Below are positions 11,215 through 59,062 of a DNA stretch of 64,000 nt, piece by piece (positions within the stretch are counted from its first letter, which is position 1; each line of letters starts with the position of its first letter). A model generated the notes under the pieces. It was not told the DNA's origin. It made no database searches and saw only the letters and a list, made by a program, of their open reading frames with translations. The stretch is from Eledone cirrhosa (Eukaryota): assembly GCA_964016885.1 (NCBI GenBank), contig CAXHJY010000142.1, positions 1-64,000 on the forward strand, in the 5' to 3' direction. The position numbers were made by a program, and so were the translations under genes.

Positions 11215-11252
<38 letters not shown>

Positions 11253-11272: not shown

Positions 11273-11298
11273 AGACAATTAAACAGTTGAGTACTTAC

Positions 11299-11481
11299 CT
11301 TCTCAAAATAAACGACAGTAAATTCAGTGCTATCAAAGTTAATGTAAGGAAATTCAATCATGAGGTACATAAAGTCTGAATTTCTCTTCTGTTTCTCGTT
11401 GATCATCTCAATCTCACGGAATGTCAACCTGTCTAACCAATCTACCTTCACCATGTGGCCATCACGGTACTTCTTGCTTAG
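11299..11481 (-). CDS. PIK3C3: Vps34 coding exon 5
   Basis: TAG|CTA...AAG|GTAAGT. 183 bp, [61 protein letters not shown]; near-identical to human [22 protein letters not shown]. Confidence 0.95.
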
Positions 11482-11529
11482 CTACAACAACAACAATAAC
11501 AACATCATCATCACCACTGCCCTTGTAAT

Positions 11530-11760
11530 AATGATTTCTACTTTAGGCACAAGGCCAGCAATTTGGGGAGAGGGGAAAGTCGATTAAATCGACCCCAGTG
11601 TGTGACTGGTACTTTATTTTATCCCCCCCCCCCCCCGTAAGGACGAAAGGCAAAGCTAACCTCGGCAGGATTTGAACTCAGAACGCAAAGGGCCGTAACT
11701 CTATGCCGCAAAGCATGTTGTCCAACGCTCTACCGGTACTGCCAATCCACTGCCCACAAT
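11530..11760 (-). mobile_element. Nin-like tRNA SINE
   Basis: Full head (GGATTGGCAGTACCGGTAGAG), B box and tail. Confidence 0.8.
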
Positions 11761-11850
11761 AATAATCGTTTCTAGTTTAGGCACAAGGCCAGCAAACTGA
11801 AAGGGGAAGATTGATGGGAGGGAATGTGTATGAGGGAAAGAACATGTAAT

Positions 11851-11882
11851 GAGAGAGAGAGAGAGACAGAGAGAGTTAGAGG

Positions 11883-11916
<34 letters not shown>

Positions 11917-12092
11917 GAGAGACAGGGAGAGTTAGAGAGAATGAGAGAGATAGAGGGAGAGAGAGAGAGAGAGAGACAGAGAGAGTTAGAGGGAGAGAGA
12001 GAGAGTTAGAGGGAGAGAGAGAGAGAGACAGGGAGAGTTAGAGAGAATGAGAGAGATAGAGGGAGAGAGAGAGAGAGAGAGACAGAGAGAGT

Positions 12093-12130
<38 letters not shown>

Positions 12131-12451
12131 GTTAGAGGGAGAGAGAGAGAGAGAGTTAGAGGGAGAGAGAGAGAGAGAGAGAGACAGAGAGAGTTAGAGA
12201 GAGAGAGAGAGTTAGAGGGAGAGAGAGAGAGAGAGAGACAGAGAGAGTTAGAGAGAGAGAGAGAGAGAGACAGAGAGAGTTAGAGGGAGAGAGAGAGAGA
12301 GACAGAGAGAGTTAGAGAGAGAGAGAGAGAGACAGAGAGAGTTAGAGGGAGAGAGAGAGAGAGTTAGAGGGAGAGAGAGAGAGAGACAGGGAGAGTTAGA
12401 GAGAATGAGAGAGATAGAGGGAGAGAGAGAGAGAGAGAGACAGAGAGAGTT

Positions 12452-12484
<33 letters not shown>

Positions 12485-12518
12485 GTTAGAGGGAGAGAGA
12501 GAGAGAGACAGAGAGAGT

Positions 12519-12556
<38 letters not shown>

Positions 12557-12836
12557 GTTAGAGGGAGAGAGAGAGAGAGACAGAGAGAGTTAGAGAGAGA
12601 GAGAGAGAATGAGAGAGATAGGGGGAGAGAGAGAGACAGAGAGAGTTAGAGAGAGAGAGAGAGAATGAGAGAGATAGAGGGAGAGAGAGAGAGACAGAGA
12701 GAGTTAGAGAGAGAGAGAGAGACAGAGAGAGTTAGAGGGAGAGAGAGAGAGAGACAGAGAGAGTTAGAGAGAGAGAGAGAATGAGAGAGATAGGGGGAGA
12801 GAGAGAGAGAGAGTTAGAGAGAGAGAGAGAGAGAGT

Positions 12837-12919
<83 letters not shown>

Positions 12920-13326
12920 AGAGGGAGAGAGAGAGACAGAGAGAGTTAGAGAGAGAAAGAGAGAATGAGAGAGTTAGAGGGGGAGAGAGAGAGACAGAGA
13001 GAGTTAGAGAGAGAGAGAGACAGAGAGAGTTAGAGAGAGAGAGAGAGAGAGAGTTAGAGGGAGAGAGAGAGAGAGAGTTAGAGGGAGAGAGAGAGAGAGA
13101 GAGAGTTAGAGGGAGAGAGAGAGAGACAGAGAGAGTTAGAGAGAGAGAGAGAGAATGAGAGAGATAGAGGGGGAGAGAGAGAGAGAGAGAGTTAGAGGGA
13201 GAGAGAGAGAGACAGAGAGAGTTAGAGGGAGAGAGAGAGAGACAGAGAGAGTTAGAGGGAGAGAGAGAGAATGAGAGAGATAGAGGGAGAGAGAGAGAGA
13301 CAGAGAGAGTTAGAGAGAGAGAGAGA
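11851..13326. repeat. 1.5-kb compound (GA)n polypurine tract with recurrent GACA, GTTA and GAAT interruptions
   Basis: Directly visible; ends about 11 bp from the exon 4 boundary. Confidence 0.95.
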
Positions 13327-13337
13327 CATGAAATTAC

Positions 13338-13461
13338 CTTAAGTAGTCGACTCATTTGATCATTTTTGTCCTTAGATTTTCCAGGTGTGGTAGAGTTTGA
13401 ACTTGGATCAGCAGTAACGTTGGGCCACACCCGTAAGTCATGCATGCCCTGGCGGAATGTT
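13338..13461 (-). CDS. PIK3C3: Vps34 coding exon 4
   Basis: CAG|A...AAG|GTAATT. 124 bp, (G)[41 protein letters not shown]; human [17 protein letters not shown]. Confidence 0.95.
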
Positions 13462-14002
13462 CTGGAAACAGAGACATATGTAATTACTGGTACCTAAGCC
13501 ACACTGAATAAACACATGCTTACATACACACATATACATACACACATGCTTACATACACACATATACATACACACATGCATACACACATATACATACACA
13601 CATGCATACACACATATACATACACACATGCATACACACATATACATACACACATGCATACACGCACACCCTATTTAGGTTCAGACAACACACACATAGA
13701 AACATACATAATAATGGAACAGTAAAAAAAAAAATATATATATACATATAATAATAATGAAATTATTGTGTAAAGTGCTCAGGTGCACTACAACTCATCA
13801 AAGGTGCATGTATAGTACATAGAATAATATACAAATGCCAGGGAAGTGAATAGTGTATGAGTCATGATATACATGTGTATATGTAAAATATTGCAAAAGT
13901 TCTACAATGTAAAAGCTATTAGAAACTGACTCACTCTCTATTGGTAAAAATTTATAAAATTATAAAATCCGAAGAACATACATACACACATACATATATA
14001 CA

Positions 14003-14280
14003 TGATGGCTACAAACTCTGGTAAGAATATTGCCAAGGTTTGGTGCACTTTTAGGCTACGGTCAGCCACACGAACCTGTAACATATCCTGAACAAGCAAT
14101 GCCTCTGCTTTGAAGGCTTTTTTAAGTGTGAAAAGGCCTTGCACTCTACTAATCCCACTCTCTGAGCATCGAAAACACTACCCGAAAAAGAGAACTGGTC
14201 AACATCATCGGATGCTTCTGAAGCCACAGGTTTTTTTTCAGAGTTTCAGTGACAACAACTGGGGGCCTTTCACTCCCAAC
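14003..14280 (-). mobile_element. (AT)n-associated element, 3' portion
   Basis: Minus strand GATGCTCAGAGAGTGGGATT...GAGTTTGTAGCCATCAT followed by a microsatellite; homologous to 28696-28927. Confidence 0.65.
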
Positions 14281-15015
14281 ATATATACATACATATGTAT
14301 ACATACATACATCATCATTATCGTTTAACATCCATCTTCCATGTTAACATGGTTTAGACAGTTTTGTTCCATTTGATGCGGGAATGGTCGGGAGACCGTG
14401 TCTTGCTCATACGGAAGGGTCTCTGGCAGGTTTTTTACACACACATATATACATACATACATATATACATACATATATACACATATATCATCATCACCGT
14501 TTTATGTCCGTTCTTCCACACTAGCATACATATATATATAATACATACATACACAAAAATACATTTACATACAAAAGTGTATATGTGTGATGTTGAAAAA
14601 TAATTTATGTGAAAAATAATTTAAGAGTGAAAAATAAAAGTACAAATAGCTAGTTAGCCATCTATGTAAATATATAGATGGCAACAGGCTGGTCCCTGAC
14701 AAAGTCCTCCTCTTCCTCCCGCGCATCAATCTAAATATTGATTTCTAAACTGGACACGAGGCCACAAATTTTGGAGCGGGGCCATAGCTGATTATTCTTA
14801 ATTGGTACCATATCTGATGGCATATGAAACCCAATTTGGGGGGCAGGAAGGTATAAAAAAAGAAGGCTTTAAAAATATCCATGTCCTATAAGCAAAGTTA
14901 AGCTACATTCTTTAATTAGATTAGATGAAAATGAGTCCCAGCAATAGCTGGGAGTTAACTCTGTGATGGACTGGCATCCTGTCCAGGGAACAGTATTATA
15001 CTCTCAGTCACTTAA

Positions 15016-15215
15016 CACTTTAGCATTTACATTATATATATTAATGCAATTTCATGGTTAAGTTCTCTCACATAATATTGAATCTATAAGGTTTTGATAT
15101 TATTTAACTTGAGAACCATACCTTAACATCAGTATGAGCAACCAGTTACAGCCGGTTTGAACAGAAAGAGGTGAGAGAATTCTGGCTGGATGTGACTGGT
15201 TTAAATGCTAAAGGG
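15016..15215 (+). mobile_element. TTAA MITE nested in a V-like SINE (14925-15270)
   Basis: SINE sequence CTCTCAGTCAC|TTAA ... TTAA|TACCGATGAAACTGGGATAA is split at a TTAA. Confidence 0.8.
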
Positions 15216-15638
15216 TTAATACCGATGAAACTGGGATAAACCCTGGCCTAATGCACCTCTGGGCTTGGGACAGCTGTAACTCTTCTTTTGAAATAAATTT
15301 ACCCATTTTAAAGGTTGCCAATTTAAATTAAAATCTTCCAACATAATTTTATATAAGAACCTTACATTAAGTTACTCTCTTAGTAATGAAATTAATAATA
15401 ATTTTAGTAAATTCTTCTAATGGTTTCTAATTTAGGCACAAGGTCAGCAATTTTGATAGAAGAGGGAGTTGATTATATCAACTCTGTATGTAACTAGATA
15501 GGTACTGTATTTTATTAACTCCGGAAGGATGGAAAGCAAAGTTGACCTCAGCAGGATTTGAACTGAGGACACAGAGAGAGCAAGAACAGGTGTTTAGCGA
15601 TGATGTAGAATTGTAGAAGAGAAGAACAGGACACTCAC

Positions 15639-15782
15639 CCTCGTTTACCAAACAAACTGATGACAGTACCGCCAACTGGTACTGATTTGTTGGTGCCATA
15701 GAGGTCCCAGACTGTAAGGGCCAACATAGCATTTCTTGGAAGATCACTGTATTTCACAGGTAATGTTAACCACTCATTCCAG
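15639..15782 (-). CDS. PIK3C3: Vps34 coding exon 3 (C2 domain)
   Basis: CAG|C...GG|GTGAGT. 144 bp, [47 protein letters not shown]; human [26 protein letters not shown]. Confidence 0.95.
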
Positions 15783-15836
15783 CTGTGAAAGAAAGAGACA
15801 ATAGAGGGTTAATCATAATCATCATCATCATTTTAA

Positions 15837-16057
15837 CCCTTTAGCATTTACATTACTCTATATATACTATTGTATTTTTGTGCTAAAGGCTTTATCTTAC
15901 ATAATTATCTCACATGATATCGAATCTATGAGATTTTGCTGTCATTTATTTTGAGAACAATACTTTAACATCAGTATGGGTGGTCAGTTACAGGTAGTTT
16001 GAACAGAAAGTGGTGAGAGAAGTCTGGCCAGATATGGCCAGTTTAAATGCTAAAGGG
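15837..16057 (+). mobile_element. TTAA MITE
   Basis: TTAA-CCCTTTAGCATTTA...TAAATGCTAAAGGG-TTAA. Confidence 0.85.
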
Positions 16058-16738
16058 TTAAAGTATTTTTTCAATGCTGGAATATGATTTTACAGACAAG
16101 GTCCACTGGCAGGTGACCCAGAGATAGACTAGGAGCAACATGGTTGAATAACATCCATAACATTGGTAGGTCATGCTTGGAGATCCAGCTGGATCATTTG
16201 GAGATGGTTGCTACTAACAGAATCCTCTGGAAGGTGTGTGTCAGTAGACTCTGCTGCCATGACTTTCTCAGGAATATGTGAGCGAAAAAGAAGATATATG
16301 TTGAGCAATAACTAACACACACCCACAAATGAACACATACTCAAAAATAAATACACACACCCACCCAGACAATCAAAGACATAGTCGCACACACAAATAA
16401 AACAAACAGGCACATACACAAAAATAAACAGACACACACACACTCAAACAGATGTATCCAAACAGACACACACAGAAACAGACACACATACACTCAAACA
16501 GACATATCCAAACAGACACACACAAACAGACATACACAAACAGACACATACACAAAAATAAGCAGACACACATAAACAAACATATACACAGACACACAGA
16601 CACAAATGTGCACATAAACACCAACATACAGACATGCACAAAAACAAACATATACACAGACACAAACTCATACACACAGAGAAAGTATAGTAGTATTTTA
16701 GTAAAGCAAGTTTTATGGTGAAACAGAAAGCTACTTAC

Positions 16739-16927
16739 TTCCATCTTGTGGTGAATGATTTGAAAGATGTCTGGACAGGAAGCGACAATGATCTGGAGTC
16801 AGAGAAGATTTGACACGTGACATAAAGGTCAGAACAGCCTTCAGTATAGACCCCAGAAAATTTTAGAATTGGATCATTCAGGAAGTCTTTGTAACTTGGT
16901 CTATTACGGCATCCTTCCAGCGTGCCT
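16739..16927 (-). CDS. PIK3C3: Vps34 coding exon 2
   Basis: TAG|A...AA|GTAAGT. 189 bp, [62 protein letters not shown]; human [24 protein letters not shown]. Confidence 0.95.
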
Positions 16928-18191: not shown

Positions 18192-18384
18192 AGTTTTAAT
18201 ATACAAGAGCTTCTACAGGACTAGAACTGTTTCATGTGTGAGAAATCATCAGGAAGCTTCCTGGTGATTTCTCAAGAATGAAACAGTTCTAGTCCTGTAG
18301 AAGCTCTTCTATATTAAAACTTTTATACCCTGCTATGTATTGAGTACCTTATTTACTGTGGTTACTCCCGATTCAACCTGTTAT

Positions 18385-28221: not shown

Positions 28222-28381
28222 AATATAGAAAAGGCTTCTACAGAACTAGAACTGTTTCATTCGGGCTTTCCTGATGATTTCCTTCGAATGAAACAGTTCT
28301 AGTCCTGTAGAAGCCTTTTCTATATTAAATTTATACTCAGCTATGTATTGAGTACCTTACTGTGGTTACCCCCGATTGAAC

Positions 28382-29398: not shown

Positions 29399-29592
29399 AT
29401 GTATGTAAGTGTGATCGTAAGTATATATATGTGTGTTGTGTGAAAGAAAGAGAGAACTATAGATAGAACGTGAGTGATGTATATAATTGTTTCTACTTTA
29501 GGCACAAGGCCAGCAATTACCCAGTGCATTACTGATATAATAGCAGAAAGACAGGACAATAATAGAAAGAAAAGAGATATTGGAAGACTTAC

Positions 29593-29663
29593 ATTTTTAT
29601 CTCTATATTGACGTCCAGATCACAACTATACACATAGCACAATCTATCTGGAACATCAGCCAT
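29593..29663 (-). CDS. PIK3C3: Vps34 first coding exon
   Basis: AAAACCATGG start context. MADVPDRLCYVYSCDLDVNIEIK(I)|GTAAGT; human [23 protein letters not shown]. The phase-2 junction fits exon 2. Confidence 0.92.
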
Positions 29664-30317
29664 GGTTTTTTAAAATAAATATGAAGATAATTAGTGTGTG
29701 TGTGTATATATATATATACAATGGTTGGTGGCCTCTAATGTTTCACTTTATCAATTAGCAACACATAATGTCCAGTGTCGGATTGTCTGTCACCAAAGCT
29801 TTTCACTCTGGTGTCTAGTCGCCATCATGACAAGGGAAATAACTGGGATAACTATACATCATTTACACCGATGACCTCCCCCTTACCTCTTAACTTGTGG
29901 AATGTATTGTCTTACTTTTTTTGTCTTTCTATTTTTCATTCATTTTTTTTCCTTTCTCACTTTCTTTCTTTCTCACTTTTTCTTATCTTTCTTTCTCTCT
30001 CTGATTCTTTGCTTGTTTGTTTGTTTCTTTCTCAGCTTTTCTTTTTAAATGTTTCCCCCTTTTACTTCTTTTTAAATTTCTTCTATTTTTTCGTTCCCTC
30101 TCCCCTTTACTCTCTTGTTTTCTCTTTTTTTTTATTCCCACCCCCTTACCACCAATCATCTATTTCGTTTTATCCTTTCATTCAGCAGGCTTATAATCTA
30201 AGGTTCATAACATCATCATCCCACCACCACCACTATTTTTCAACAAGAACTTGGTGTCATTTTAATAATTTTGAATCGCGAAAAAAATTTATAATTTTTT
30301 ATAGTCCATCGCCATAA

Positions 30318-31066
30318 TCTAGACCTAGCCTGCGCATCGGCGTTTCCCTGAGGCTCGGCCTCCGGATCTGCCAGCCACACCAATGTCGCTGCAGTTCCAC
30401 CGTGGACTCTTTCGGCCTCCACTCGCTTTCCTGTCGCCACAGTGGCGGCCGCATTCCACGCCATGCTGCCCCCAACGAGGTCATTAAGCGTGGTGTGGAC
30501 GCTGCAAGCTTCCCTTCCCAGCTCGAACCGGTGGGGTTGGATCGAGGGGACGGCAAAAGGCCAGATGGCATGACCATCTTCCCGTTCTGCGGTGGCAAAC
30601 CCCTCGTCTGGGATGCCACTTGCACCGACACTTTCTGCAGCCGCAACCTGGTGCAGTCTGCAACTGACCCAGGTTCTGCTGCACGTCGGGCTGAGGGGGC
30701 CAAACTCCTCAAATACCGGTCGCTCTCCGACAGGTTTTTTGGTCGTACCCCTGGCAGTGGAGACTTCTGGTGTCCTCGGCCCCAGGGCTACCTCCTTACT
30801 CACCACAATAGGCACCGAGCTGGCCAGCCGCAGGTGTGAGCCCCGCGAGTTGGAGTGGCTCTTCCAGCGCGTCTCCCTCGCCGTGCCCCGGGGAAACGCC
30901 TTCTCCATTCTGTCCGTCGGGGCTGTGGGTGGGCCCCATCGCGTACCGTTGTAGTTGTTGTAGGAGAAACGGGTTCCACTTGTATATTGTATATATTTTT
31001 CTTTTGTATATATTTTTCTTGGATATCTACACCTTCGAAAACGTATCTCTGTAAAATAAAAAAATA
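30318..31066 (+). mobile_element. 5'-truncated CRE-clade non-LTR retrotransposon (zinc knuckle plus restriction-like endonuclease), frameshifted
   Basis: GC-rich island. LRLGLRICQPHQCRC...GLHSLSC...RHAAPNEVI...LEPVGL...RPDG...WDATC...KLLKY; after a frameshift at the T-run near 30735, VPLAVETSGVLGP...FQRVSLAVPRGNA. A-rich tail at about 31053-31065. Confidence 0.85.
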
Positions 31067-31369
31067 TACATTTTAAGAAATTTATGGGAAAACAAAGACA
31101 GAGGGGAAGGGAATTAAAATGTAATTATGCCATAAAACGCCCCTCGTGTCTAATTGGTACTTATTTTATCGACCCTTAAAAGACGAATGTCAAGGCTGAA
31201 CGCTACGAGATTCGAACTCAGATCATAAAGGAATGATACGGCCGCAGTATTTTCCCTTGCTCTCTACCGATTCTACCAACGTTGATAACCAAACTCCAAA
31301 AGGTTCTCTTTGTTTCACCTCAGTCAAGGAAGATAACTCTGTTAGCTTATTGTGTTTCATTAGAATCAA

Positions 31370-31409
31370 TGACGTCATGCTACTTCCGGTTCGACATCAA
31401 AATGGCAGC
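31370..31409 (+). promoter_or_regulatory. Housekeeping-type proximal promoter motifs of PLRG1 (CRE/ATF, ETS, YY1-like)
   Basis: TGACGTCA at 31370-31377, ACTTCCGG at 31382-31389, CAAAATGGCAGC at 31398-31409 overlapping the ATG. Confidence 0.6.
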
Positions 31410-32319
31410 CGGTATAGACGATGTCTTGAAACACTCAGTGCATACATTGGTGTTTCGTTCACTGAAACGAACTCATGATATGTTCCTGTCTGATCAGAAC
31501 TTTATACCCACAATCGACGAAAAATGCGAGAAGCTATGGGCCGATATAAAATTACGCGGCGAATACAGCATGGTGAAAGACATGCCGCGACCCGAACCAC
31601 CGCACTCGAAAAAGCTCACAGAACACGTTGGAGGATCCAACTCGACCGGTCCGGGCGATCAAGACGGGGAACAAAATCAAGTAGAGTTCCGAAAGACTGT
31701 ATTGTCAGATGGATCGGTTGTGACCACACCTGTACCAAACAACATGCAGGTGACTACCTATGATTCCAAGACTTCCGACCAGAATTCCAAGATGTTAACT
31801 ACCTTGAATCAAACGTTAATCCCAAGAAAAGCCCCAACTATGCCCAAGCCGGAATGGCACCCTCCTTGGAAACTGTACAGAGTGATTTCTGGCCATTTAG
31901 GCTGGGTCCGATGTATATCTGTGGAACCGAAAAACGAATGGTTTGTTACGGGCGGCGGTGACCGCGTTATAAAAATCTGGGACTTGGCTAGTGGCACGCT
32001 AAAGTTGTCCCTGACAGGACATATCAGCTCTGTACGTGGCGTGTGTGTCAGTCCTCGCAACCCTTATCTCTTCTCTTGCGGTGAGGACAAACTGGTGAAG
32101 TGCTGGGACCTGGAATACAACAAAGTAATTCGCCACTACCATGGACATCTGAGTGCTGTTTACGGCCTTGATATTCATCCTACCATTGACGTATTGCTGT
32201 CGTGCGGACGTGATTCTACGGCCCGTGTCTGGGATATGCGGACAAAAGCGTGTGTCCACACCATGACTGGACACACCAACACTGTAGCTGTGGTCAAATG
32301 TCAAGCAGCTGAGCCACAG
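31402..32319 (+). CDS. PLRG1: Pleiotropic regulator 1 (Prp46, Prp19/NTC complex WD40 protein), exon 1 (306 codons)
   Basis: [20 protein letters not shown]-terminus, [25 protein letters not shown] and WD repeats; ends QAAEPQ|GTAAGT. The ORF-track extension past 32319 is intron read-through. Confidence 0.97.
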
Positions 32320-33237
32320 GTAAGTAAATTGTTCATTCTCTTTCGTTTTATAAAAACATATTTAAAAAATCCCAGACTTTCTGGTCCGAATAGAACATTT
32401 CCAAATGTTGACAGCCTGATTCGTTCTGGTTTTTACACACAGGCTTTAGTAAATGCAGGAATATTCTGTAATAATTTGTACAGTTTATGATATTATTATT
32501 GATTAAGGTTAATTTTACCTTGAAATCCTTACGGGGTCGATAAAATAAAGCACAAATAATACATTGGAATGATTGCTGGCCTTGTACCAAAAGTAGAAAC
32601 AATTATTGATTAGGGTTTGGGGTTCGTGTTGGCCTTTAGTTTAAGGTTAGGGTTAAGGGTTATGAGGCAGCTTTAGGGCATTCTATAACATTTACTACTG
32701 TTTATGGTACGTATTATTGATTAGGGGATCGGTTTGAGGTTAGTTTAAGGTTAGGGTTAAGAGTTAAGAAAAATCACGATTGGAAAACTAGTTGTTTTAG
32801 AATTTCTTTTATACTATACGCAAAAAATTGAATTGAACTGTTTACTTTTTGTTTTGAAAAGATATTGGATTCCCCATAAACATTGATTCATCGAGATAAG
32901 GTCTACCATGTTCGTTGACCTGCTAGAAATAGCAGCCATATCTACCTCAGATCACCTACCGTCTTGAAAGAAGGAAATATACATTAGATAATCTAGTCAT
33001 AGATACTCATAAAAATATGGTATTGTCCAGGCAGGAATGTTTCTGACTAGGTTTGGTTCACATTCTTTATACTCTTCCACATATATTTTTACTATTGTAC
33101 TATTTCATCATTGCCATCATCATTCTTGTGATTTAATGTTTGTTTTCTATACTTGCTTGGGTTAGATGGGTTCTCGTGTGCTGTGGCTTGACTGGTCAGG
33201 TGATCACATCTTACTCATACTCTCCATTTTAGTATGG

Positions 33238-33480
33238 TTTCTCAGGCTGGATTCTCTTCCTAACACCAGCCATTTTACAGTGTGTACTGGGAGCATATTT
33301 TCTACAGCTGGATGCTCTTTCTAACACTGACCACTTTACTGCATGTACTGGGAGCATGGGTTGTAAGGTCAGATGCCCTTCCTAACACCAGTCACTTTAC
33401 AGTGTATACTGGGAGCATGTTTTCTACAGCTGCATGTTCTTCCTAACTCTGACCACTTTGTAGAGTTCACTGGGTGTGTT
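33238..33480 (-). repeat. About 60-bp tandem repeat (4 copies) derived from a Meta-like SINE, inside the PLRG1 intron
   Basis: Repeated TTTCTACAGCTGGATG..CTTCCTAACAC..ACCACTTTAC...TACTGGGAGCAT. Confidence 0.75.
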
Positions 33481-34043
33481 TATCATGTGGATCACCTAAA
33501 CTAGAGAGGTTGCTCTTAACACAATGGAAGAGTCCACTCAATCCAGGTCTTCCTCTACTGCAGCTTCCCTCCACTGGATGTCTTAGCACTTCTTCACCCA
33601 ATGATCATGATCCATATGCCTCACATGATCACACCAGCACCATATTCTCTCCTGCACTGATTCATTTGATTCCTCTGATACTCAGTGTTTCTCTTAAATC
33701 TGCCTCCCATTAGCCTTCAATATTTGAAATTTTTTTTTGTTTTTATCACTTGTCTCACTAGTTCTTTTTGATTACCTACTGTAAGGAGTACTCAATGCTT
33801 CCCCTAGTCTGTTATGGTTTACTAGTTCTATACGTACGTTTAAATTGAATAAATGAATAGCATAAAATATTTAAAATAAGGTCCATCTCTAAAGATGTTG
33901 ATAATCTGGAAAATTATAATTTTATATAATATTTCCATTGTATTTTCATCATCATCATGTTTGTTTCCCTGCTTGCAGGTTGGATGGGTGTGTTTTATTT
34001 CTGTATTTGTTTTTCTTATATTTCTGTTTCTTTCCTTCCCTAG

Positions 34044-34556
34044 GTAATTACTGGTAGCCACGATTGTACTATCCGTCTATGGGACCTGGCAGCTGGACGT
34101 ACTCGTGCCACACTTACCAACCACAAGAAGAGCATCCGATCCTTAGTCCTCCACCCCACCAAGTATTCCTTTACATCAGGCTCTCCAGACAACATTAAAC
34201 AGTGGAAGTTTCCAGATGGGAACTTCATCCAGAACTTGACAGGCCACAACGCCATCATCAATACTCTCGGTATGAACTCTGACAATGTCCTCGTGTCTGG
34301 CGCCGACAATGGTACAATGTATTTCTGGGACTGGAAGACTGGTTACAACTTCCAGAGAATCCAAGCTGCTGTACAGCCAGGCTCTATTGATTCTGAAGCT
34401 GGTATCTTTGCTTGTACCTTTGATCACAGTGGAAGTCGTTTGATTACTGGGGAGGCTGACAAAAGTATCAAAATTTACAAAGAAGATGAAACAGCCTCCG
34501 AAGAAAGTCACCCCATTAACTGGAGGCCAGACATTCTGAAGAGGAAGCGATATTAG
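34044..34556 (+). CDS. PLRG1: PLRG1 exon 2 (170 codons plus stop); full protein about 476 aa
   Basis: Polypyrimidine tract TTTCCTTCCCTAG|GTAATT; [19 protein letters not shown]...[15 protein letters not shown]...[18 protein letters not shown]; in frame with exon 1. Confidence 0.97.
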
Positions 34557-41049: not shown

Positions 41050-44000
41050 ATAGTTAGCACTAGGGTACATACAGTGTTATATAGTTGGGTGTAAGTATAT
41101 AGCTAGTGTTATATAGTTAGCTGTAAGTGTACAGTGTTATATAGCTGTAAGTGTACAACCAGTGTTATATAGTTAGCTGTAGGGTACAGTGTCATATAGA
41201 GTAGTTAGTTAGCTGTAAGATACAGTGTCATACAGAGTAGTTAGCTGTAAGGTAGAGTGTCAAATAGAGTAGTTAGTTAGCTGTAGGGTACAGTGTCATA
41301 CAGAGTAGCTAGCTGTAAGGTACAGTGTCATATAGAGTAGTTAGCTGTAAGATACAGTGTCAAATAGAGTAGTTAGCTGTAAGGTAGAGTGTCATATAGA
41401 GGAGTTAGTTAGCTGTAGGGTACAGTGTCATACAGAGTAGTTAGTTAGCTGTAGGCTACAGTGTCATATAGAGGAGTAGTTAGTTAGCTGTAGGGTACAG
41501 TGTCATACAGAGTATTTAGTTAGCTGTAAGGTACAGTGTCACATAGAGGAGTTAGCTAGCTGTAAGGTAGAGTGTCATATAGAGTAGTAGTTAATTAGCT
41601 GTAGGGTACAGTGTTATACAGAGGAGTTAGTTAGCTGTAAGGTAGAGTGTCATATAGAGTAGTTAATTAGCTGTAAGATACAGTGTCATATAGAGGAGTT
41701 AGTTAGCTGTAAGGTAGAGTGTCATATAGAGGTGATAGTTAGCTGTAGGGTACAGTGTCATATAGAGGAGTTAGTTAGCTGTAGGGTAGTGTCATATAGA
41801 GTAGTTGGTTAGCTGTAAGGTAGAGTGTCATATAGAGGAGTAGTTAGTTAGCTGTAAGGTACAGTGTCATACAGAGGAGTTAGTTAGCTGTAGGGTACAG
41901 TGTCATATAGAGTAGTTAGTTAGCTGTCAGGTACAGTGTCATATAGAGGAGTTAATTAGCTGTAGGGTACAGTGTCATATAGAGTAGTTAGTTAGCTGTC
42001 AGGTACAGTGTCATATAGAGGAGTTAATTAGCTGTAGGGTACAGTGTCATACAGAGTAGTTGGTTAGCTGTAAGGTAGAGTGTCATATAGAGTAGTTAGC
42101 TGTAAGGTACAGTGTCATATAGAGTAGTTAGCTGTAAGGTAGAGTGTCATATAGAGGAGTTAGTTAGCTGTAGGGTACAGTGTTATACAGAGGAGTGAGT
42201 TAGCTGTAGGGTACAGTGTCATATAGAGTAGTTAGTTAGCTGTAGGGTACAGTGCCATACAGAGTAGTTAGTTAGCTGTAGGGTACAGTGTCATATAGAG
42301 TAGTTAGCTGTAAGGTACAGTGTCATATAGAGTAATTAGTTAGCTGTAGGGTACAGTGTCATACAGAGTAGTTAGTTAGCTGTCAGGTACAGTGTCATAT
42401 AGAGGAGTTAATTAGCTGTAGGGTACAGTGTCATACAGAGTAGTTGGTTAGCTGTAAGGTAGAGTGTCATATAGAGTAGTTAGCTGTAAGGTACAGTGTC
42501 ATATAGAGTAGTTAGCTGTAAGGTAGAGTGTCATATAGAGGAGTTAGTTAGCTGTAGGGTACAGTGTTATACAGAGGAGTGAGTTAGCTGTAGGGTACAG
42601 TGTCATATAGAGTAGTTAGTTAGCTGTAGGGTACAGTGCCATACAGAGTAGTTAGTTAGCTGTAGGGTACAGTGTCATATAGAGTAGTTAGCTGTAAGGT
42701 ACAGTGTCATATAGAGTAATTAGTTAGCTGTAGGGTACAGTGTCATACAGAGTAGTTAGTTAGCTGTCAGGTACAGTGTCATATAGAGGAGTTAATTAGC
42801 TGTAGGGTACAGTGTCATACAGAGTAGTTGGTTAGCTGTAAGGTAGAGTGTCATATAGAGTAGTTAGCTGTAAGGTACAGTGTCATATAGAGTAGTTAGC
42901 TGTAAGGTAGAGTGTCATATAGAGGAGTTAGTTAGCTGTAGGGTACAGTGTTATACAGAGGAGTGAGTTAGCTGTAGGGTACAGTGTCATATAGAGTAGT
43001 TAGTTAGCTGTAGGGTACAGTGCCATACAGAGTAGTTAGTTAGCTGTAGGGTACAGTGTCATATAGAGTAGTTAGCTGTAAGGTACAGTGTCATATAGAG
43101 TAATTAGTTAGCTGTAGGGTACAGTGTCATACAGAGTAGTTAGTTAGCTGTAAGGTAGAGTGTCATATAGAGGAGTTAGTTAGCAGTAGGGTACAGTGTC
43201 ATATAGAGGAGTTAATTAGCTGTAGGGTACAGTGTCATACAGAGTAGTTAGTTAGCTGTCAGGTACAGTGTCATATAGAGGAGTTAATTAGCTGTAGGGT
43301 ACAGTGTCATATAGAGTATTTAGTTAGCTGTAAGGTACAGTGTCATATAGAGTAGTAGTTAATTAGCTGTAGGGTACAGTGTCATACAGAGGAGTTAGTT
43401 AGCTGTAGGGTACAGTGTCATATAGAGTAGTTAGCTGTAAGGTAGAGTGTCATATAGAGTATTTAGTTAGCTGTAAGGTACAGTGTCATATAGAGGTGAT
43501 AGTTAGCTGTAGGGTACAGTGTCATACAGAGGAGTTAGTTAGCTCTAGGGTACAGTGTCATATAGAGTAGTTAGCTGTAAGGCAGAGTGTCATATAGAGG
43601 ATTTAGTTAACTGTAGAGTACAGTGTCATATAGAGTAGTTAGTTAGCTGTAAGGTACAGTGTCATATAGAGTAGTTAGTTATCTGTAGGGTACAGTGTCA
43701 TATAGAGTAGTTAGTTATCTGTAGGGTACAGTGTCATATAGAGTAGTTAGTTAGCTGTAGGGTACTGTGTCATGCAGAGGAGTTAGTTAGCTGTAGGGTA
43801 CAGTGTCATATAGAGTAGTTAGTTATCTGTAGGGTACAGTGTCATATAGAGTAGTTAGTTAGCTGTAGGGTACTGTGTCATATAGAGTAGTTAGTTATCT
43901 GTAGGGTACAGTGTCATATAGAGTAGTTAGTTAGCTGTAGGGTACTGTGTCATGCAGAGGAGTTAGTTAGCTGTAAGGTACAGTGTCATATAGAGTAGTT

Positions 44001-47000
44001 AGTTATCTGTAGGGTACAGTGTCATATAGAGTAGTTAGTTAGCTGTAGGGTACTGTGTCATATAGAGTAGTTAGTTATCTGTAGGGTACAGTGTCATATA
44101 GAGTAGTTAGTTAGCTGTAGGGTACTGTGTCATGCAGAGGAGTTAGTTAGCTGTAGGGTACAGTGTCATATAGAGTAGTTAGTTATCTGTAGGGTACAGT
44201 GTCATATAGAGTAGTTAGTTAGCTGTAGGGTACTGTGTCATGCAGAGGAGTTAGTTAGCTGTAGGGTACAGTGTCATATAGAGGAGTTAGTTAGCTGTAG
44301 GGTACACTGTCATATAGAGTAGTTAGTTAGCTGTAGGGTACACTGTCATATAGAGTAGTTAGTTAGCTGTAGGGTACAGTGTCATGCAGAGGAGTTAGCT
44401 GTAAGGTACAGTGTCATACAGAGTAGTTACTTAGCTGTAAGGTACAGTGTCATATAGAGTAGTTAGTTAGCTGTAAGGTACAGTGTCATATAGAGTAGTA
44501 GTTAGCTGTAAGGTACAGTGTCATATAGAGTAGTTAATTAGCTGTAGGGTACAGTGTCATATAGAGTAGTTAGTTAGCTGTCAGGTACAGTGTCATATAG
44601 AGGAGTTAATTAGCTGTAGGGTACAGTGTCATACAGAGGAGTTAGTTAGCTGTAAGGTAGAGTGTCATATAGAGTAGTTAGCTATAAGGTACAGTGTCAT
44701 ATAGAGTAGTTAATTAGCTGTAAGATACAGAGTCATATAGAGGAGTTAGTTAGCTGTAGGGTAGTGTCATATAGAGTAGTTGGTTAGCTGTAAGGTAGAG
44801 TGTCATATAGAGGAGTAGTTAGTTAGCTGTAGGGTACAGTGTCATATAGAGTAGTTAGTTAGCTGTAAGGTAGAGTGTCATATAGAGTAGTTGGTTAGCT
44901 GTAAGGTAGAGTGTCATATAGAGGAGTAGTTAGTTAGCTGTAGGGTACAGTGTCATATAGAGTAGTTAGTTAGCTGTAAGGTAGAGTGTCATATAGAGTA
45001 TTTAGTTAGCTGTAGGGTACAGTGTCATATAGAGTAGTTAGCTGTAAGGTACAGTGTCATATAGAGTAGTTAGCTGTAAGGTAGAGTGTCATATAGAGGA
45101 GTTAGTTAGCTGTAGGGTACAGTGTTATACAGAGGAGTGAGTTAGCTGTAGGGTACAGTGTCATATAGAGTAGTTAGTTAGCTGTAGGGTACATTGTCAT
45201 ATAGAGTAGTTAGTTAGCTGTAAGGTACAGTGTCATATAGAGGAGTAGTTAGTTAGCTGTAGGGTACAGTGTCATATAGAGTAGTTAGTTAGCTGTAAGG
45301 TACAGTGTCATATAGAGTAGTTAGTTAGCTGTAGGGTACAGTGTCATATAGAGTAGTTAGTTAGCTGTAAGGTACAGTGTCATATAGAGGAGTAGTTAGT
45401 TAGCTGTAGGGTACAGTGTCATATAGAGTAGTTAGTTAGCTGTAGGGTACAGTGTCATACAGAGGAGTTAGTTAGCTGTAAGGTACAGTGTCATATAGAG
45501 TATTTAGTTAGCTGTAGGGTACAGTGTCATACAGAGTAGTTAGTTAGCTGTAGGGTACAGTGTCATACAGAGGAGTTAGTTAGCTGTAAGGTACAGTGTC
45601 ATATAGAGTATTTAGTTAGCTGTAGGGTACAGTGTCATACAGAGTAGTTAGTTAGCTGTAAGGTAGAGTGTCATATAGAGTAGTTAGCTGTAAGGTAGAG
45701 TGTCATATAGAGGAGTTAGTTAGCTGTAGGGTACTGTGTCATGCAGAGGAGTTAGTTAGCTGTAGGGTACAGTGTCATACAGAGGAGTTAGTTAGCTGTA
45801 GGGTACAGTGTCATATAGAGTAGTTAGCTGTAAGGTACAGTGTCATATAGAGTAATTAGTTAGCTGTAGGGTACAGTGTCATACAGAGTAGTTAGTTAGC
45901 TGTAAGGTAGAGTGTCATATAGAGTAGTTAATTAGCTGTAAGATACAGAGTCATATAGAGGAGTTAGTTAGCTGTAGGGTAGTGTCATATAGAGTAGTTG
46001 GTTAGCTGTAAGGTAGAGTGTCATATAGAGGAGTAGTTAGTTAGCTGTAGGGTACAGTGTCATATAGAGTAGTTAGTTAGCTGTAAGGTAGAGTGTCATA
46101 TAGAGTAGTTGGTTAGCTGTAAGGTAGAGTGTCATATAGAGGAGTAGTTAGTTAGCTGTAGGGTACAGTGTCATATAGAGTAGTTAGTTAGCTGTAAGGT
46201 AGAGTGTCATATAGAGTATTTAGTTAGCTGTAGGGTACAGTGTCATATAGAGTAGTTAGCTGTAAGGTACAGTGTCATATAGAGTAGTTAGCTGTAAGGT
46301 AGAGTGTCATATAGAGGAGTTAGTTAGCTGTAGGGTACAGTGTTATACAGAGGAGTGAGTTAGCTGTAGGGTACAGTGTCATATAGAGTAGTTAGTTAGC
46401 TGTAGGGTACATTGTCATATAGAGTAGTTAGTTAGCTGTAAGGTACAGTGTCATATAGAGGAGTAGTTAGTTAGCTGTAGGGTACAGTGTCATATAGAGT
46501 AGTTAGTTAGCTGTAAGGTACAGTGTCATATAGAGTAGTTAGTTAGCTGTAGGGTACAGTGTCATATAGAGTAGTTAGTTAGCTGTAAGGTACAGTGTCA
46601 TATAGAGGAGTAGTTAGTTAGCTGTAGGGTACAGTGTCATATAGAGTAGTTAGTTAGCTGTAGGGTACAGTGCCATACAGAGTAGTTAGTTAGCTGTAGG
46701 GTACAGTGTCATACAGAGGAGTTAGTTAGCTGTAAGGTACAGTGTCATATAGAGTATTTAGTTAGCTGTAGGGTACAGTGTCATACAGAGTAGTTAGTTA
46801 GCTGTAAGGTAGAGTGTCATATAGAGTAGTTAGCTGTAAGGTAGAGTGTCATATAGAGGAGTTAGTTAGCTGTAGGGTACTGTGTCATGCAGAGGAGTTA
46901 GTTAGCTGTAGGGTACAGTGTCATACAGAGGAGTTAGTTAGCTGTAGGGTACAGTGTCATATAGAGTAGTTAGCTGTAAGGTACAGTGTCATATAGAGTA

Positions 47001-48262
47001 ATTAGTTAGCTGTAGGGTACAGTGTCATACAGAGTAGTTAGTTAGCTGTAAGGTAGAGTGTCATATAGAGGAGTTAGTTAGCAGTAGGGTACAGTGTCAT
47101 ACAGAGGAGTTAGTTAGCTGTAGGGTACAGTGTCATATAGAGTAGTTAGCTGTAAGGTAGAGTGTCATATAGAGTATTTAGTTAGCTGTAAGGTACAGTG
47201 TCATATAGAGTAGTTAGCTGTAAGGTAGAGTGTCATATAGAGTATTTAGTTAGCTGTAAGGTACAGTGTCATATAGAGTAGTTAGCTGTAAGGTAGAGTG
47301 TCATATAGAGTATTTAGTTAGCTGTAAGGTACAGTGTCATATAGAGTAGTAGTTAATTAGCTGTAGGGTACAGTGTCATACAGAGGAGTTAGTTAGCTGT
47401 AGGGTACAGTGTCATATAGAGTAGTTAGCTGTAAGGTAGAGTGTCATATAGAGGATTTAGTTAGCTGTAAGGTACAGTGTCATATAGAGGTGATAGTTAG
47501 CTCTAGGGTACAGTGTCATATAGAGTAGTTAGTTAGCTGTAAGGCAGAGTGTCATATAGAGGAGTAGTTAGTTAGCTGTAGGGTACACTGTCATATAGAG
47601 GATTTAGTTAACTGTAGAGTACAGTGTCATACAGAGTAGTTAGTTAGCTGTAAGGTACAGTGTCATATAGAGTAGTTAGTTAGCTGTAAGGTACAGTGTC
47701 ATATAGAGTAGTTAGTTATCTGTAGGGTACAGTGTCATATAGAGTAGTTAGTTATCTGTAGGGTACAGTGTCATATAGAGTAGTTAGCTGTAGGGTACAG
47801 TGTCATATAGAGTAGTTAGTTAGCTGTAGGGTACTGTGTCATGCAGAGGAGTTAGTTAGCTGTAAGGTACAGTGTCATATAGAGTAGTTAGTTAGCTGTA
47901 GGGTACACTGTCATATAGAGTAGTTAGTTAGCTGTAGGGTACACTGTCATATAGAGTAGTTAGTTAGCTGTAGGGTACAGTGTCATGCAGAGGAGTTAGT
48001 TAGCTGTAAGGTACAGTGTCATACAGAGTAGTTACTTAGCTGTAAGGTACAGTGTCATATAGAGTAGTTAGTTAGCTGTAAGGTACAGTGTCATATAGAG
48101 TAGTAGTTAGCTGTAAGGTACAGTGTCATATAGAGGAGTAGTTAGTTAGCTGTAAGGTACAGTGTCATATAGAGTAGTTAGTTAGCTGTAAGGAACAGTG
48201 TCATATAGAGTAGTTAGTTAGCTGTAAGGTAGAGTGTCATATAGAGTAGTAGTTAGTTGTAA
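41050..48262. repeat. 7.2-kb satellite of 32/36/39-bp monomers with higher-order repeats
   Basis: Monomer AGTT(AGTT)AGCTGTA(G/A)GGTA(C/G)AGTGTCATATAGAG(T/G); about 200 copies. Confidence 0.97.
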
Positions 48263-53042: not shown

Positions 53043-53679
53043 CAGCGAATATTCTACAGAACGCAAAAATGCGAAATGAGGAACAAAGCGACGTATTATT
53101 TAAATTAAACTGCGAACCGGTATTACTTTTAATTTACCTGAGAATAATTGGTATTTAGAACACCTAAACATTCTCACATGTTTGCTGTGTCAATTAAACA
53201 CACTCGCTCTCAAACAAATTTACACTCCTTTGGTAAAAAATCTAAACATCGTCACTGAACGAGAAAAATAAATTAAGACTAGAGCTATATCTACATAAAC
53301 TTGTATTCTGAACCAGTTTACCAAATGTTTTTTTACCATCTAAATTAACAAATACCTTACACATCTCACATATTTCCCCCCTCGACGTATCTAAAGAAGA
53401 CATACAAAAAAAAGAGATAGGGACGAAAGCAACAGATCTATATTTCTAAATTTCGTTAGTTACTTACATAAATCGGAACGGAAGCAATTCTACCATCAGA
53501 AGCTATAATTATATTTCAAATTAAATTTGTTCGCGATTTTTAACCCCTTTTCTTTTAAAAATATAAAAATATTATATATATTTATTTATTAACATTCAAA
53601 CACGCTATTTTTAGTAAGAACTACGAACAGATTATCTAAAATACTCTCCATGATCACACATACACACACACACACAAAT

Positions 53680-53778
53680 GGATTCTACAGGACTAGAATT
53701 GTTTCATTCGAAGGAAATCATTGTATACACATTACAAATGTATTGAGTACCTTACTGTGGTTACCCCCGATTAAACCC
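53680..53778. mobile_element. Deleted copy of the 18192/28222 hammerhead element family
   Basis: Inverted arm TTCTACAGGACTAGAATTGTTTCATTCGAAGGAAATCAT plus tail ATGTATTGAGTACCTTACTGTGGTTACCCCCGATT. Confidence 0.65.
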
Positions 53779-53949
53779 AGGACTCTCTCCCCCTATCTCT
53801 CACACACAACAAAACACATACAAACACATGTATATCACGCACAATGTATGTAAATATATGTATATGTATGCATATATATATGTATTTGTATATATATATA
53901 TGTATACATAAATATATATATGTATACATAAATATATATATGTATATAT

Positions 53950-54318
53950 ACAATATATTAATAAATGGAAACTATATTTATAAAACCATATTTATTTTAT
54001 TATATATATTTCAAGGGCAACCAAGGCAAATTATGGTGCGCTTTCATCAGATGAAATACAAATTTGTTTTATAAATAAATATTGACATACCCGGAAAAAA
54101 GACAACCTTAACGGTTGGAGCTTCCTATAGCTTCACTATCCAGGAAGCTCCAACCGTTAAGGTTGTCTTTTTTCCGGGTATGTCAATATTTATTTATAAA
54201 ACAAATTTGTATTTCATCTGATGAAAGCGCACCATAATTTGCCTTGGTTGCCCTTGAAATATATATAATAAAATAAATATGGTTTTATAAATATAGTTTC
54301 CATTTATTAATATATTGT
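53950..54318. repeat. 177-bp inverted repeat with 15-nt spacer, containing a hammerhead motif
   Basis: Arms 53950-54126 and 54142-54318 read as exact reverse complements by eye; CTGATGA at 54218 and GAAA at 54256. Confidence 0.85.
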
Positions 54319-54404
54319 GTATTTACTCCACTAACTTGTTGAGTGCTTTATATCAATTATAAAAATGTTTAAGCTTGTTGAATCCCAACAAATTAAATAT
54401 AACC

Positions 54405-54456
<52 letters not shown>

Positions 54457-56343: not shown

Positions 56344-56755
56344 CTGTAAAGTGGTTATGTAGGTGTCACGATAAAAAGCACCCAACCCACACTGTAAAGT
56401 GGTTGTGTAGGTGTCATGACAAAAAGCACCCAGTCCACACTGTAAAATGGTTGTGTAGGTGTCACGATAAAAAGCACCCAACCCACACTGTAAAGTGGTT
56501 GTGTAGGTGTCATGACAAAAAGCACCCAGTCCACACTGTAAAGTGGTTGTGTAGGTGTCATGACAAAAAGCACCCAGTCCACACTAAATGTGGTTGGCAT
56601 TAGGAAGAGCATCTAACCACAGAAACCTAGCCAAAATCAGTTTTGTATGAGTAAGACATGGTCATCTGATCTGGCTTGTCTCACAATTGGACAACTTATC
56701 TAGCCTATGCTATCATGGAAAAATGGACATTAAACGGTGATGATGATGATGATTG
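56344..56755 (+). repeat. 48-bp tandem repeat (5 copies) continuing into a Meta-like SINE
   Basis: Unit CACTGTAAAGTGGTTGTGTAGGTGTCATGACAAAAAGCACCCAGTCCA runs into GTGGTTGGCATTAGGAAG...GGACATTAAACGGTGATG. Confidence 0.8.
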
Positions 56756-57559: not shown

Positions 57560-58410
57560 CAATCCGACCATGACCATCACATCAGTATTTTCTATCCTCC
57601 ATGTAAACAAGAGTGCCAGCTAGAGATATATAGGTTTAGATACTCTGTCAATCCGACCATGACCACCACAACAGTTAGAGATATATAGGTCTAGATACCC
57701 TGTCAATCCGACCATGACCACCACAACAGTACTTTCTATCCTCCATGTAAACAAGAGTGCCAGCTAGAGATATATAGGTCTAGATACTCTGTCAATCCGA
57801 CCATGACCACCACAACAGTACTTTCTATCCTCCATGTAAACAAGAGTGCCAGCTAGAGATATATAGGTCTAGATACTCTGTCAATCCGACCATGACCACC
57901 ACAACAGTACTTTCTATCCTCCATGTAAACAAGAGTGCCAGCTAGAGAGATATAGGTCTAGATACTCTGTCAATCCGACCATGACCACCACAACAGTACT
58001 TTCTATCCTCCATGTAAACAAGAGTGCCAGCTAGAGAGATATAGGTCTAGATACTCTGTCAATCCGACCATGACCACCACAACAGTACTTTCTATCCTCC
58101 ATGTAAACAAGAGTGCCAGCTAGAGAGATATAGGTCTAGATACTCTGTCAATCCGACCATGACCACCACAACAGTACTTTCTATCCTCCATGTAAACAAG
58201 AGTGCCAGCTAGAGAGATATAGGTCTAGATACTCTGTCAATCCGACCATGACCACCACAACAGTACTTTCTATCCTCCATGTAAACAAGAGTGCCAGCTA
58301 GAGAGATATAGGTCTAGATACTCTGTCAATCCGACCATGACCACCACAACAGTACTTTCTATCCTCCATGTAAACAAGAGTGCCAGCTAGAGATATATAG
58401 GTCTAGATAA
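57560..58410. repeat. 89-bp minisatellite (about 10 copies, one internally deleted)
   Basis: CAATCCGACCATGACC at 57704, 57793, 57882, 57971, 58060, 58149, 58238 and 58327. Confidence 0.95.
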
Positions 58411-58519: not shown

Positions 58520-59062
58520 TTATATTACACTTACGGCGTCGATAAAATAAAGTACCAGTAATGCACTGGGGTCGATTTAATTGATTTTCCCTTCCCCCAA
58601 ATTGCTGGCCTTGTGCCTATATAAGAAACCATTATTATTGGCAGTACCGGGTGGATTGGCAGTATCGGTGGAGAGTTGGACACCATGCTTTACAGCATAG
58701 AGTTACGCCCCTTTATGGTCTGAGTTCAAATCTTACCGAGGTTAACTTTACCTTTCATCCTTACGAGGTCGATAAAATAAAGTACCAGTAATACACTGGG
58801 GGGGGGGGGGGCATTTAATCAACTTTTCCTTTCCTCCAAATAATGGTTTCTTATATAGGCACAAGGCCAGCAATTTTGGGGGGAGGGGAAAGTCGATAAA
58901 ATCGACACCAGTGTGTGACTGGTACTTTATTTTATCGACCCCGTAAGGATGAAAGGCAAAATTAACCTCGGCGAGATTTGAACTCAGAATGGCAAGGGCA
59001 GTAACTCTATGCTGCAAAGCATGGCGTCCGACCCTCTACCGATACTGCCAATCCACCGCCTT
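58520..59062. mobile_element. Cluster of Nin-like SINEs, including a convergent pair
   Basis: Plus copy 58650-58840 and minus copy 58842-59062 meet tail to tail. Confidence 0.8.

Follow-up and report, generated by a model that had tools for sequence, protein, structure and literature searches.

What kind of element leaves a long hairpin whose two strands each encode a hammerhead ribozyme motif, and how did that hairpin arise at this octopus locus? The window is the whole stretch of DNA that was analysed, 64,000 nucleotides (64 kb) in length. With a probability of roughly 0.7, we read the hairpin as a copy of a high-copy, protein-free octopus repeat of ~280 nt that carries a type I hammerhead. 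This repeat is likely a non-autonomous Penelope-like retroelement (PLE), represented by a pLTR piece. During its insertion into (TA)n, the cDNA likely doubled back on itself and primed the synthesis of a second, inverted copy without the tail. The starting points are three observations: the layout of the insertion, its multi-copy family and the conserved structure of its hammerhead.

A nearly perfect hairpin with a one-sided tail

A base-by-base comparison of the arms (53950-54126 and 54142-54318) gave 0 mismatches over 177 pairs around a 15-nt spacer, exactly as claimed in a preliminary description of the locus. The first mismatch is found at 53949/54319, beyond which the inverted repeat reaches 53946/54322 (1 mismatch in 181). 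From left to right, the insertion begins with (TA)n and an inverted copy that lacks the tail, continues with a direct copy (54127-54322) and the 86-nt tail, and closes with (TA)n (Table 1). The tail, which was absent from the preliminary picture, extends to ~54408 and has no mirror in the left arm. No target duplication other than microsatellite is visible, and a MITE or foldback element, which would be defined by terminal inverted repeats on either side together with a target-site duplication of fixed length, is not recognisable at the hairpin.

The layout has the features of Penelope-like insertions. An inverted, 5'-truncated copy adjoins the direct one. There is a one-ended, optional tail, since 54323-54408 is unmirrored and the family has two end classes, although this tail exceeds the published 30-40 bp. 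In addition, (TA)n-type flanks surround the hairpin and three other fold-backs of the window, as expected from a bias of insertion towards microsatellite or AT-rich DNA, a bias judged here without a genome-wide null in a genome that is itself microsatellite-rich.

Table 1. Parts of the hairpin insertion, in positions of the window
Feature	Position	Strand	Basis
Left flank, TA/TG-rich microsatellite, likely target site	53844-53945		Tandem Repeats Finder row 53844-53958 and sequence
Inverted tail-less copy (left arm), perfect from 53950	53946-54126	-	Arm comparison; family records ending in (TA)n at mirror places 54305, 54313, 54322
Minus-strand hammerhead motif, mirror of 54210-54275	53993-54058	-	Sequence
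15-nt spacer, read as 5' start of direct copy	54127-54141	+	4-bp ATAG/CTAT inverted repeat inside; family depth steep from ~54134
Predicted lead stem-loop at the family's usual 5' boundary	54135-54183	+	Fold, pair probabilities 0.33-1.0
Direct copy, mirrored part (right arm), perfect to 54318	54142-54322	+	Arm comparison
Extended type I hammerhead	54191-54293	+	Stem Ib 54191-54202/54282-54293 (12 bp), internal loop, stem Ia 54210-54217/54268-54275; stem Ib P 0.87-1.0
Hammerhead core	54218-54267	+	CUGAUGA 54218-54224, stem II 54225-54255, GAAA 54256-54259, palindromic stem III 54259-54266, predicted cleavage after 54267
Unmirrored 86-nt tail	54323-54408	+	Three predicted hairpins 54324-54345, 54347-54363, 54365-54400; family contigs/reads reach ~54408
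Right flank, (TA)n microsatellite, likely target site	54409-54453		Sequence

The arm carries a type I hammerhead motif

All the pairings listed in the preliminary description are present. Stem I has 7 of its 8 pairs, the exception being 54215 C opposite 54270 A, and stem II consists of the three blocks already named together with a C-C mismatch and a bulged U. The triplet is AUA. The self-complementary stretch ATATATAT forms the palindromic stem III, with a duplex energy of -3.2 kcal/mol, and helix III is predicted to be stable only as a dimer. Beyond an internal loop, stem I is closed by the perfect 12-bp stem Ib, which had been overlooked. The motif does stand on both strands: CUGAUGA starts at 54218 (+) and at 54050 (-), so that each strand of the locus has one motif, the two being 168 bp apart.

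The residues of a type I core, C3-U4-G5-A6-N7-G8-A9, G12-A13-A14, A15.1-U16.1 and H17, follow one another in order, and helices I, II and III are present with an open-ended helix I. As in the minimal hammerheads of PLEs described in excerpts of PMC4209133, positions 15.2-16.2 and loop 3 are palindromic and helix II is enlarged. The G10.1-C11.1 pair and the extra nucleotide between 9 and 10.1 given there are missing, and an A-U pair comes directly after A9; one loose-end class of run X14 (see below) has C at 11.1, its partner position not being among the rows displayed. Overall, the sequence supports the assignment of the motif to type I hammerheads, conserved within a repeat family.

A descriptor of core and stems, written after the motif was seen and missing a motif at 18252, gave three matches on the two strands of the 64-kb window. 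In 200 block-shuffled windows the mean was 0.03, with one match in 6 of the 200 and two in none. A pattern test (2 matches against 0 in 100 shuffles) was discarded as circular, its pattern having been derived from the hairpin sequence itself. At the gathering score, Rfam gave no match in the 64-kb window; at E-values up to 10, the hairpin region had 27 matches without any hammerhead family among them, and the motif accordingly matches no Rfam hammerhead model. Those 27 matches are miRNA-hairpin models that score the palindrome below their own cut-offs, and were rejected. Scanning for the exact pattern gave 0 matches in metagenome contigs and 0 in viral contigs. A looser descriptor returned four metagenome loci, none of which extends stem I (as judged by eye) and which have only short AT-rich BLAST matches (best E 0.001); these were attributed to chance.

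Fold z-scores of the single arm are only -0.27 to -1.40. When 54186-54300 is folded with the letter that the family carries at 54215, the hammerhead is the minimum-energy structure, with a probability of 0.38-0.46 for stem Ia and of 0.01 for a decoy helix. With the hairpin copy's own letter, stem Ia drops to 0.01 or less and the decoy helix, which covers GAAA, reaches 0.75. This letter and the decoy helix that it brings would therefore make the copy a poor ribozyme even as one arm, and cleavage by a single arm is predicted to fail because of the decoy helix and the minimal stem III.

The hairpin belongs to an abundant repeat family

Relatives were searched for with 54090-54412 as reference, at 82% likeness, in four of 16 listed runs (X1, X4, X6 and X14), the family counts leaving aside six small-share runs besides X6. 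X4 and X6 carry organism labels different from that of X1 and from each other; X1 contains 0.66 of 29 sampled words and may be the source sample. Matches were obtained for 8,304 of 17,142,217 contigs in X1, 60 of 8,254,286 in X4, 4 of 3,376,751 in X6, and 31,440 of 12,467,656 raw RAD reads in X14, figures that should not be taken as copy numbers, because the depths of contigs are sums and restriction sites shape the depth of X14. Judging by these matches, notably those to the arm region in X1, the copy-number check proposed in the preliminary description finds that the arm is a very abundant, high-copy repeat of octopus.

Family depth climbs steeply from ~54134, continues to climb over the hammerhead and its 3' side, drops at 54310-54331 and ends at ~54408. 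One X4 contig begins at ~54134 directly after (CT)n, and (TA)n as well as (CT)n loose ends occur in the family records. In many of them, (TA)n follows 54305, 54313 or 54322, whereas others continue to ~54408; hence, the family has tail-less and tail-bearing end classes, resembling the optional tail that depends on two RT start sites in PMC11167929.

The core is conserved in homologous copies, with no variant at its 13 positions among the 40 rows shown of 76. The 12 variant rows shown for 54210-54275 concern loop II, the bulge, two places where A-U becomes G-U, 54230/54250 and 54215; likewise, in the rows shown, indels within the hammerhead are confined to loop II, the bulge or wobble-tolerant places. 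One X6 contig has both sides of the 54230/54250 change, from C-G to U-A, and the X14 reads with these changes are 676 of 2,047 and 580 of 1,927. As far as these alignments reach, family relatives alter stem II in compensatory fashion while the core stays. The family letter at 54215, which completes stem I, accounts for 99.7% of X1 depth and for 2,018 of 2,062 X14 reads.

At least one subfamily, seen as loose ends before 54252-54256, combines the same 3' half of the hammerhead and the same tail with a different stem II. By eye, this stem II keeps the basal stem and the C-C mismatch, and its distal stem is longer.

In X14, molecule ends pile up at 54236, 54239 and 54394, AATT sites being present at 54236 and 54391, and a further pile-up from 54255 follows a loose end containing GCATGC. 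These pile-ups coincide with AATT and GCATGC sites, which we take to be the restriction sites of the X14 RAD library, and were rejected as biological ends. The other-letter counts of X14 contain no A>G excess (A>G 13, T>C 9, G>A 9, C>T 8) and the runs are DNA, so nothing was read as editing.

Inverted joints are found elsewhere in the family. The left arm may be joined to 54176 or to 54277; three X1 contigs with a summed depth of 263 share a centre that is 3 nt shorter; one contig crosses the hairpin centre with 8 gaps; and several opposite-strand joints occur in X1 and X14. Joints whose second part is upstream of the first, which may bear on partial head-to-tail tandems (pLTR formation), also occur in the family records, the rows that give their kind being outside those shown. 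The layout recurs and the junctions differ, which suggests that the fold-back has been made again and again, each time with an inverted arm that stops short of the tail. Depth at the centre (54123-54133) is 9,712 in X1 and ~46 in X14, as compared to 495,908 and 1,902 at 54200-54210; the centre thus stays at ~2% in both runs, bearing in mind that hairpins can drop out of short-read data.

These profiles bear on another reading of the hairpin, a DNA transposon of the foldback or MITE type in which long inverted repeats form the termini and the hammerhead is incidental. Its long, near-perfect inverted repeat, short spacer and TA-rich surroundings would agree with such an element, and excerpts of PMC13282606 report MITE and TIR families that are active in Octopus vulgaris. 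However, the family sequence continues for 86 nt past the right arm and not past the left one, most of it lacks the centre, and its depth increases towards the 3' end, the pattern of truncated copies made by retroposition. In addition, the hammerhead structure covaries and no target duplication besides microsatellite is visible. A DNA transposon consequently retains hardly any probability.

Other fold-backs and genes in the window

Three more fold-backs of the same layout are found at 3517-3650, 18192-18321 and 28222-28326, making four fold-backs of three sequence types in the 64-kb window. With 1 mismatch in 181 for the hairpin, 1 in 42 at 28222-28326, 2 in 67 at 3517-3650 and 5 in 65 at 18192-18321, the four diverge as decay would give. 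Of the two explanations advanced in the preliminary description for the identity of the arms, a recent origin is plausible from the single mismatch in 181, and active homogenisation is unneeded, although conversion may have acted.

The elements at 18192-18321 and 28222-28326 belong to another hammerhead family, with a 3-bp stem III, an 8-nt loop, a GUA triplet and a common tail. BLAST of the arm gave no match to the other hammerheads of the window, and the hairpin indeed carries a different one. In the 18 kb copy, the intact CUGAUGA sits in the inverted arm, on the sense strand of PIK3C3. A degenerate copy of the 18/28 kb family is located at 53676-53790, ~160 bp left of the hairpin. The third type, at 3517-3740, has 67-bp arms with no spacer, a tail and (TA)n flanks; it seems to hold only the GAAA half of the hammerhead core and is likely inside a later PIK3C3 intron. 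The tails of the four elements, which are weakly similar in alignment around one hairpin, were rejected as one family.

PIK3C3 (minus strand) was located with an Argonauta protein as query, through five exon matches at 9964-16926 and a first coding exon at 29592-29663; the 18 kb and 28 kb fold-backs are both positioned between its coding exons 1 and 2. The two exons of PLRG1 (31402-34553, plus strand) share 92% and 98% identity with a protein carrying the name of Octopus vulgaris, and the matches of both genes mark the host as an octopus. PIK3C3 (Vps34) and PLRG1 are head to head, ~1.7 kb apart, and the coding region of PLRG1 has one intron only. No host gene spanning the hairpin was detected: the start of PIK3C3 (minus strand) is at 29663, and the hairpin is ~19 kb beyond the PLRG1 stop (34553).

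None of the 99 window frames scanned with Pfam reached the cut-off, 94 of them being all the non-repetitive frames of at least 55 aa beyond 35 kb; two of the 99 gave weak sub-cut-off matches, and no RT or GIY-YIG ORF was found near the hairpin at that cut-off. Open frames at 30240-31124, between PIK3C3 and PLRG1, have no Pfam match and presumably resemble a fragment of the endonuclease region of a non-LTR retroelement. The window also contains a 7-kb satellite at 41170-48261 (36-nt period, 199 copies, 88% matches, strong GC skew), arrays of 89 nt at 57672-58409 and of 48 nt at 56344-56596, and an imperfect inverted repeat at 58650-59057 (78% over ~420 nt), probably two opposed copies of a common short repeat.

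The other fold-backs help to judge whether the hairpin is a sequencing or assembly artefact, in which an ordinary single copy was folded back. Arms that are perfect over 177 bp could raise this suspicion, and the exact junction of the locus with its flanks is in no record listed (8,409 pieces are outside that list). On the other hand, the flanks are unmirrored, and the left arm stops where other family members also end; at the position mirroring 54319 it carries the family-majority letter, from which the right arm departs. Moreover, the three other fold-backs bear 1-5 mismatches, and X1 contigs carry left-arm-to-direct-copy junctions of other copies. We consider an artefact most improbable.

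Four fold-backs of three types within 64 kb could also mean that the palindrome itself is mobile and is copied whole, as a rod-like RNA or a hairpin DNA with a hammerhead on both polarities. The shorter centre common to the three X1 contigs is compatible with this idea, as some junctions may be multi-copy. It is nevertheless very unlikely, given that the depth of the centre is small relative to that of the arms (with the same reservation about short reads), that junctions vary among copies, that the tail is on one side only and that the antisense arm is predicted to block both ribozymes.

A fold-back of the cDNA may have produced the inverted copy

We favour an origin by retroposition with copy-back. 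By analogy with the PLE literature, an RT/GIY-YIG protein supplied in trans by an autonomous Penelope family would nick the AT-rich target, and reverse transcription would begin at the outer end of the tail (~54408). The cDNA would end near the 5' boundary of the family at 54127 and prime itself near 54142. Copy-back would then stop at the base of the first hairpin of the tail (54322), and its product would be joined to the other (TA)n end. Copied back from one cDNA, both arms would be identical at birth. The rare letter at 54215 is present in both arms, which makes a single template likely, later conversion being also compatible. At 54319, the letter of the family majority (10,308 of 10,876 X14 reads) pairs with 53949, so that the right arm likely acquired the single mismatch at a later time. 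Using a clock from another species (0.09 per 25 million years, excerpts of PMC13282606), 1 mismatch in 181 would correspond to a rough age of ~0.8 million years (0.02-4.3).

Some details do not fit. The predicted DNA fold of a cDNA ending at 54127 pairs 54129-54137 with 54142-54149 and not as in the observed junction, which requires a 4-bp match and a 2-nt slip. Of the two asymmetric X1 junctions, only the one to 54176 agrees with the lead stem-loop, through 4 bp that do not occur in the predicted cDNA fold. The Penelope-like reading as such has against it that none of the 99 frames scanned yielded an RT or GIY-YIG ORF to link with the unit, as well as the lack of an Rfam hammerhead, the A-U pair at 10.1-11.1, the lack of an extra nucleotide after A9 and the 86-nt tail.

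A real rival is dual priming from two start sites. A dimeric PLE protein would cut both strands, and two cDNAs, one with and one without the tail, would be made from two RT start sites on the same or sibling RNAs, their 3' ends being joined head to head by microhomology. This would account for left arms that end a few bases short of the first hairpin predicted for the tail, both at this locus and in the 28 kb element, and for family left-arm ends at three fixed sites. Palindromic centres with zero spacer are found in two window elements, where identical cDNA ends could anneal, and excerpts of PMC11167929 describe two adjacent RT start sites, both-strand cleavage and a predicted dimer. Yet the 15-nt spacer of the hairpin is non-palindromic and can be read as the 5' start of the direct copy, which is what a fold-back would leave, and excerpts of PMC3846280 prefer self-priming for such junctions. 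Hence, we regard dual priming as improbable and self-primed copy-back as the preferred reading. On that reading, the hairpin likely behaves as the inverted end does in Penelope-like insertions, with strict membership awaiting a linked RT/GIY-YIG ORF, and the hairpin is likely an insertion scar without selected function.

Predicted consequences for transcripts

The family ribozyme is predicted to fold as a type I hammerhead that needs a dimer for stem III. In the hairpin copy it would be disabled twice, by the decoy helix over GAAA and by the antisense arm. In a modelled read-through transcript, 13 of the 13 core nucleotides pair with the mirror arm (P at least 0.997), in agreement with the sequestration predicted in the preliminary description. 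By sequence geometry, the antisense arm would be made first on either strand, leaving no co-transcriptional window for cleavage.

Transcription would be required for the hairpin to serve as a substrate of ADAR or Dicer, and the family of the hairpin is of modest interest as a candidate source of ADAR substrates. The 18 kb and 28 kb fold-backs make better test cases for dsRNA because they are between the first two PIK3C3 coding exons. Three of the four fold-backs of the window are inside or likely inside PIK3C3 introns, from which a wider picture may be drawn tentatively, although we find it rather unlikely. Octopus genomes would be strewn with tiny, protein-free Penelope derivatives born as perfect fold-backs. 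As a counterpart of inverted Alu pairs, these would be a main source of perfect dsRNA in introns, open to ADAR and Dicer, and the fold-back would also silence each ribozyme so that host pre-mRNAs stay uncut.

Taken as a single locus, the hairpin is an ordinary insertion scar. The family, in turn, offers thousands of natural junctions and two end classes for deciding how Penelope-like elements invert their copies, a question left open in the literature consulted. It also allows perfect hairpins to be catalogued in an animal whose extensive A-to-I editing is well known.

Comparison with known elements

No published description of octopus hammerhead elements was found. The terms "hammerhead" and "palindrom" have 0 occurrences in the excerpted text of two cephalopod repeat surveys (PMC13282606 and PMC8967140), whose repeat libraries may hold the family under another label. 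The first of these attributes to Octopus vulgaris, in the parts available, a Penelope-like content of 6.83% with 31 recently active families.

The closest likeness is to Penelope/Poseidon, Neptune and Hydra insertions. As excerpted, PMC8557442 describes an inverted 5'-truncated copy beside the upstream pLTR, a tail of 30-40 bp at one end, a microsatellite bias of insertion and the existence of non-autonomous families. Excerpts of PMC3846280 add a shorter inverted pLTR, an optional tail and a TATATATA stretch in the pLTR, and read the palindromes at head-to-head pLTR junctions as self-priming. The hairpin likewise has head-to-head copies, the inverted one being shorter and tail-less, together with a one-ended tail, insertion into (TA)n and a hammerhead inside the repeat. 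The TATATATA stretch, interpreted as a two-way TATA box in the excerpts of PMC3846280, is the stem III palindrome in the hairpin. Unlike those elements, the hairpin locus has no ORF, its unit measures ~280 nt, and its tail is 86 nt long and not 30-40. In excerpts of PMC11167929, two RT start sites define the tail, both strands are cleaved at AT-rich DNA, and insertion is independent of ribozyme cleavage.

The motif itself resembles the minimal type I hammerheads of metazoan PLEs. According to excerpts of PMC4209133, these dimer-type motifs are located in pLTRs, a single motif gave no cleavage, and pairs of them are found on opposite strands, 100-700 bp apart. Shared features are the CUGANGA/GAAA core, the long helix II, the palindromic helix III that requires a dimer, covariation within a family and opposite-strand motif pairs within that same range. 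In contrast to the motifs excerpted there, the hairpin motif has A-U for G-C at 10.1-11.1 and no extra nucleotide after A9. Its helix I is longer than in PLE minimal hammerheads (8 bp, internal loop, 12 bp), and is nearer to that of canonical type I hammerheads.

Non-LTR retrozymes, described in excerpts of PMC7229834 and bioRxiv 10.64898/2026.07.22.740005 as non-autonomous PLE derivatives, are similar to the hairpin unit in being ~200-400 nt long, AT-rich, protein-free and equipped with a type I hammerhead. However, retrozymes are same-strand, head-to-tail tandems in these excerpts and release monomers and circles, whereas the hairpin motifs are on opposite strands. Each transcript therefore contains only one motif in sense orientation, from which no monomer can be released. 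The mark of a retrozyme, a run of two or more units on the same strand, each with its complete hammerhead, is not present at the hairpin locus.

Finally, young repeats are the main editing targets in excerpts of PMC9989829. As with the inverted young repeats that serve there as ADAR substrates, the close inverted copy of the hairpin would give a long dsRNA. Unlike those inverted pairs, the inversion of the hairpin is built into one insertion and is nearly perfect.
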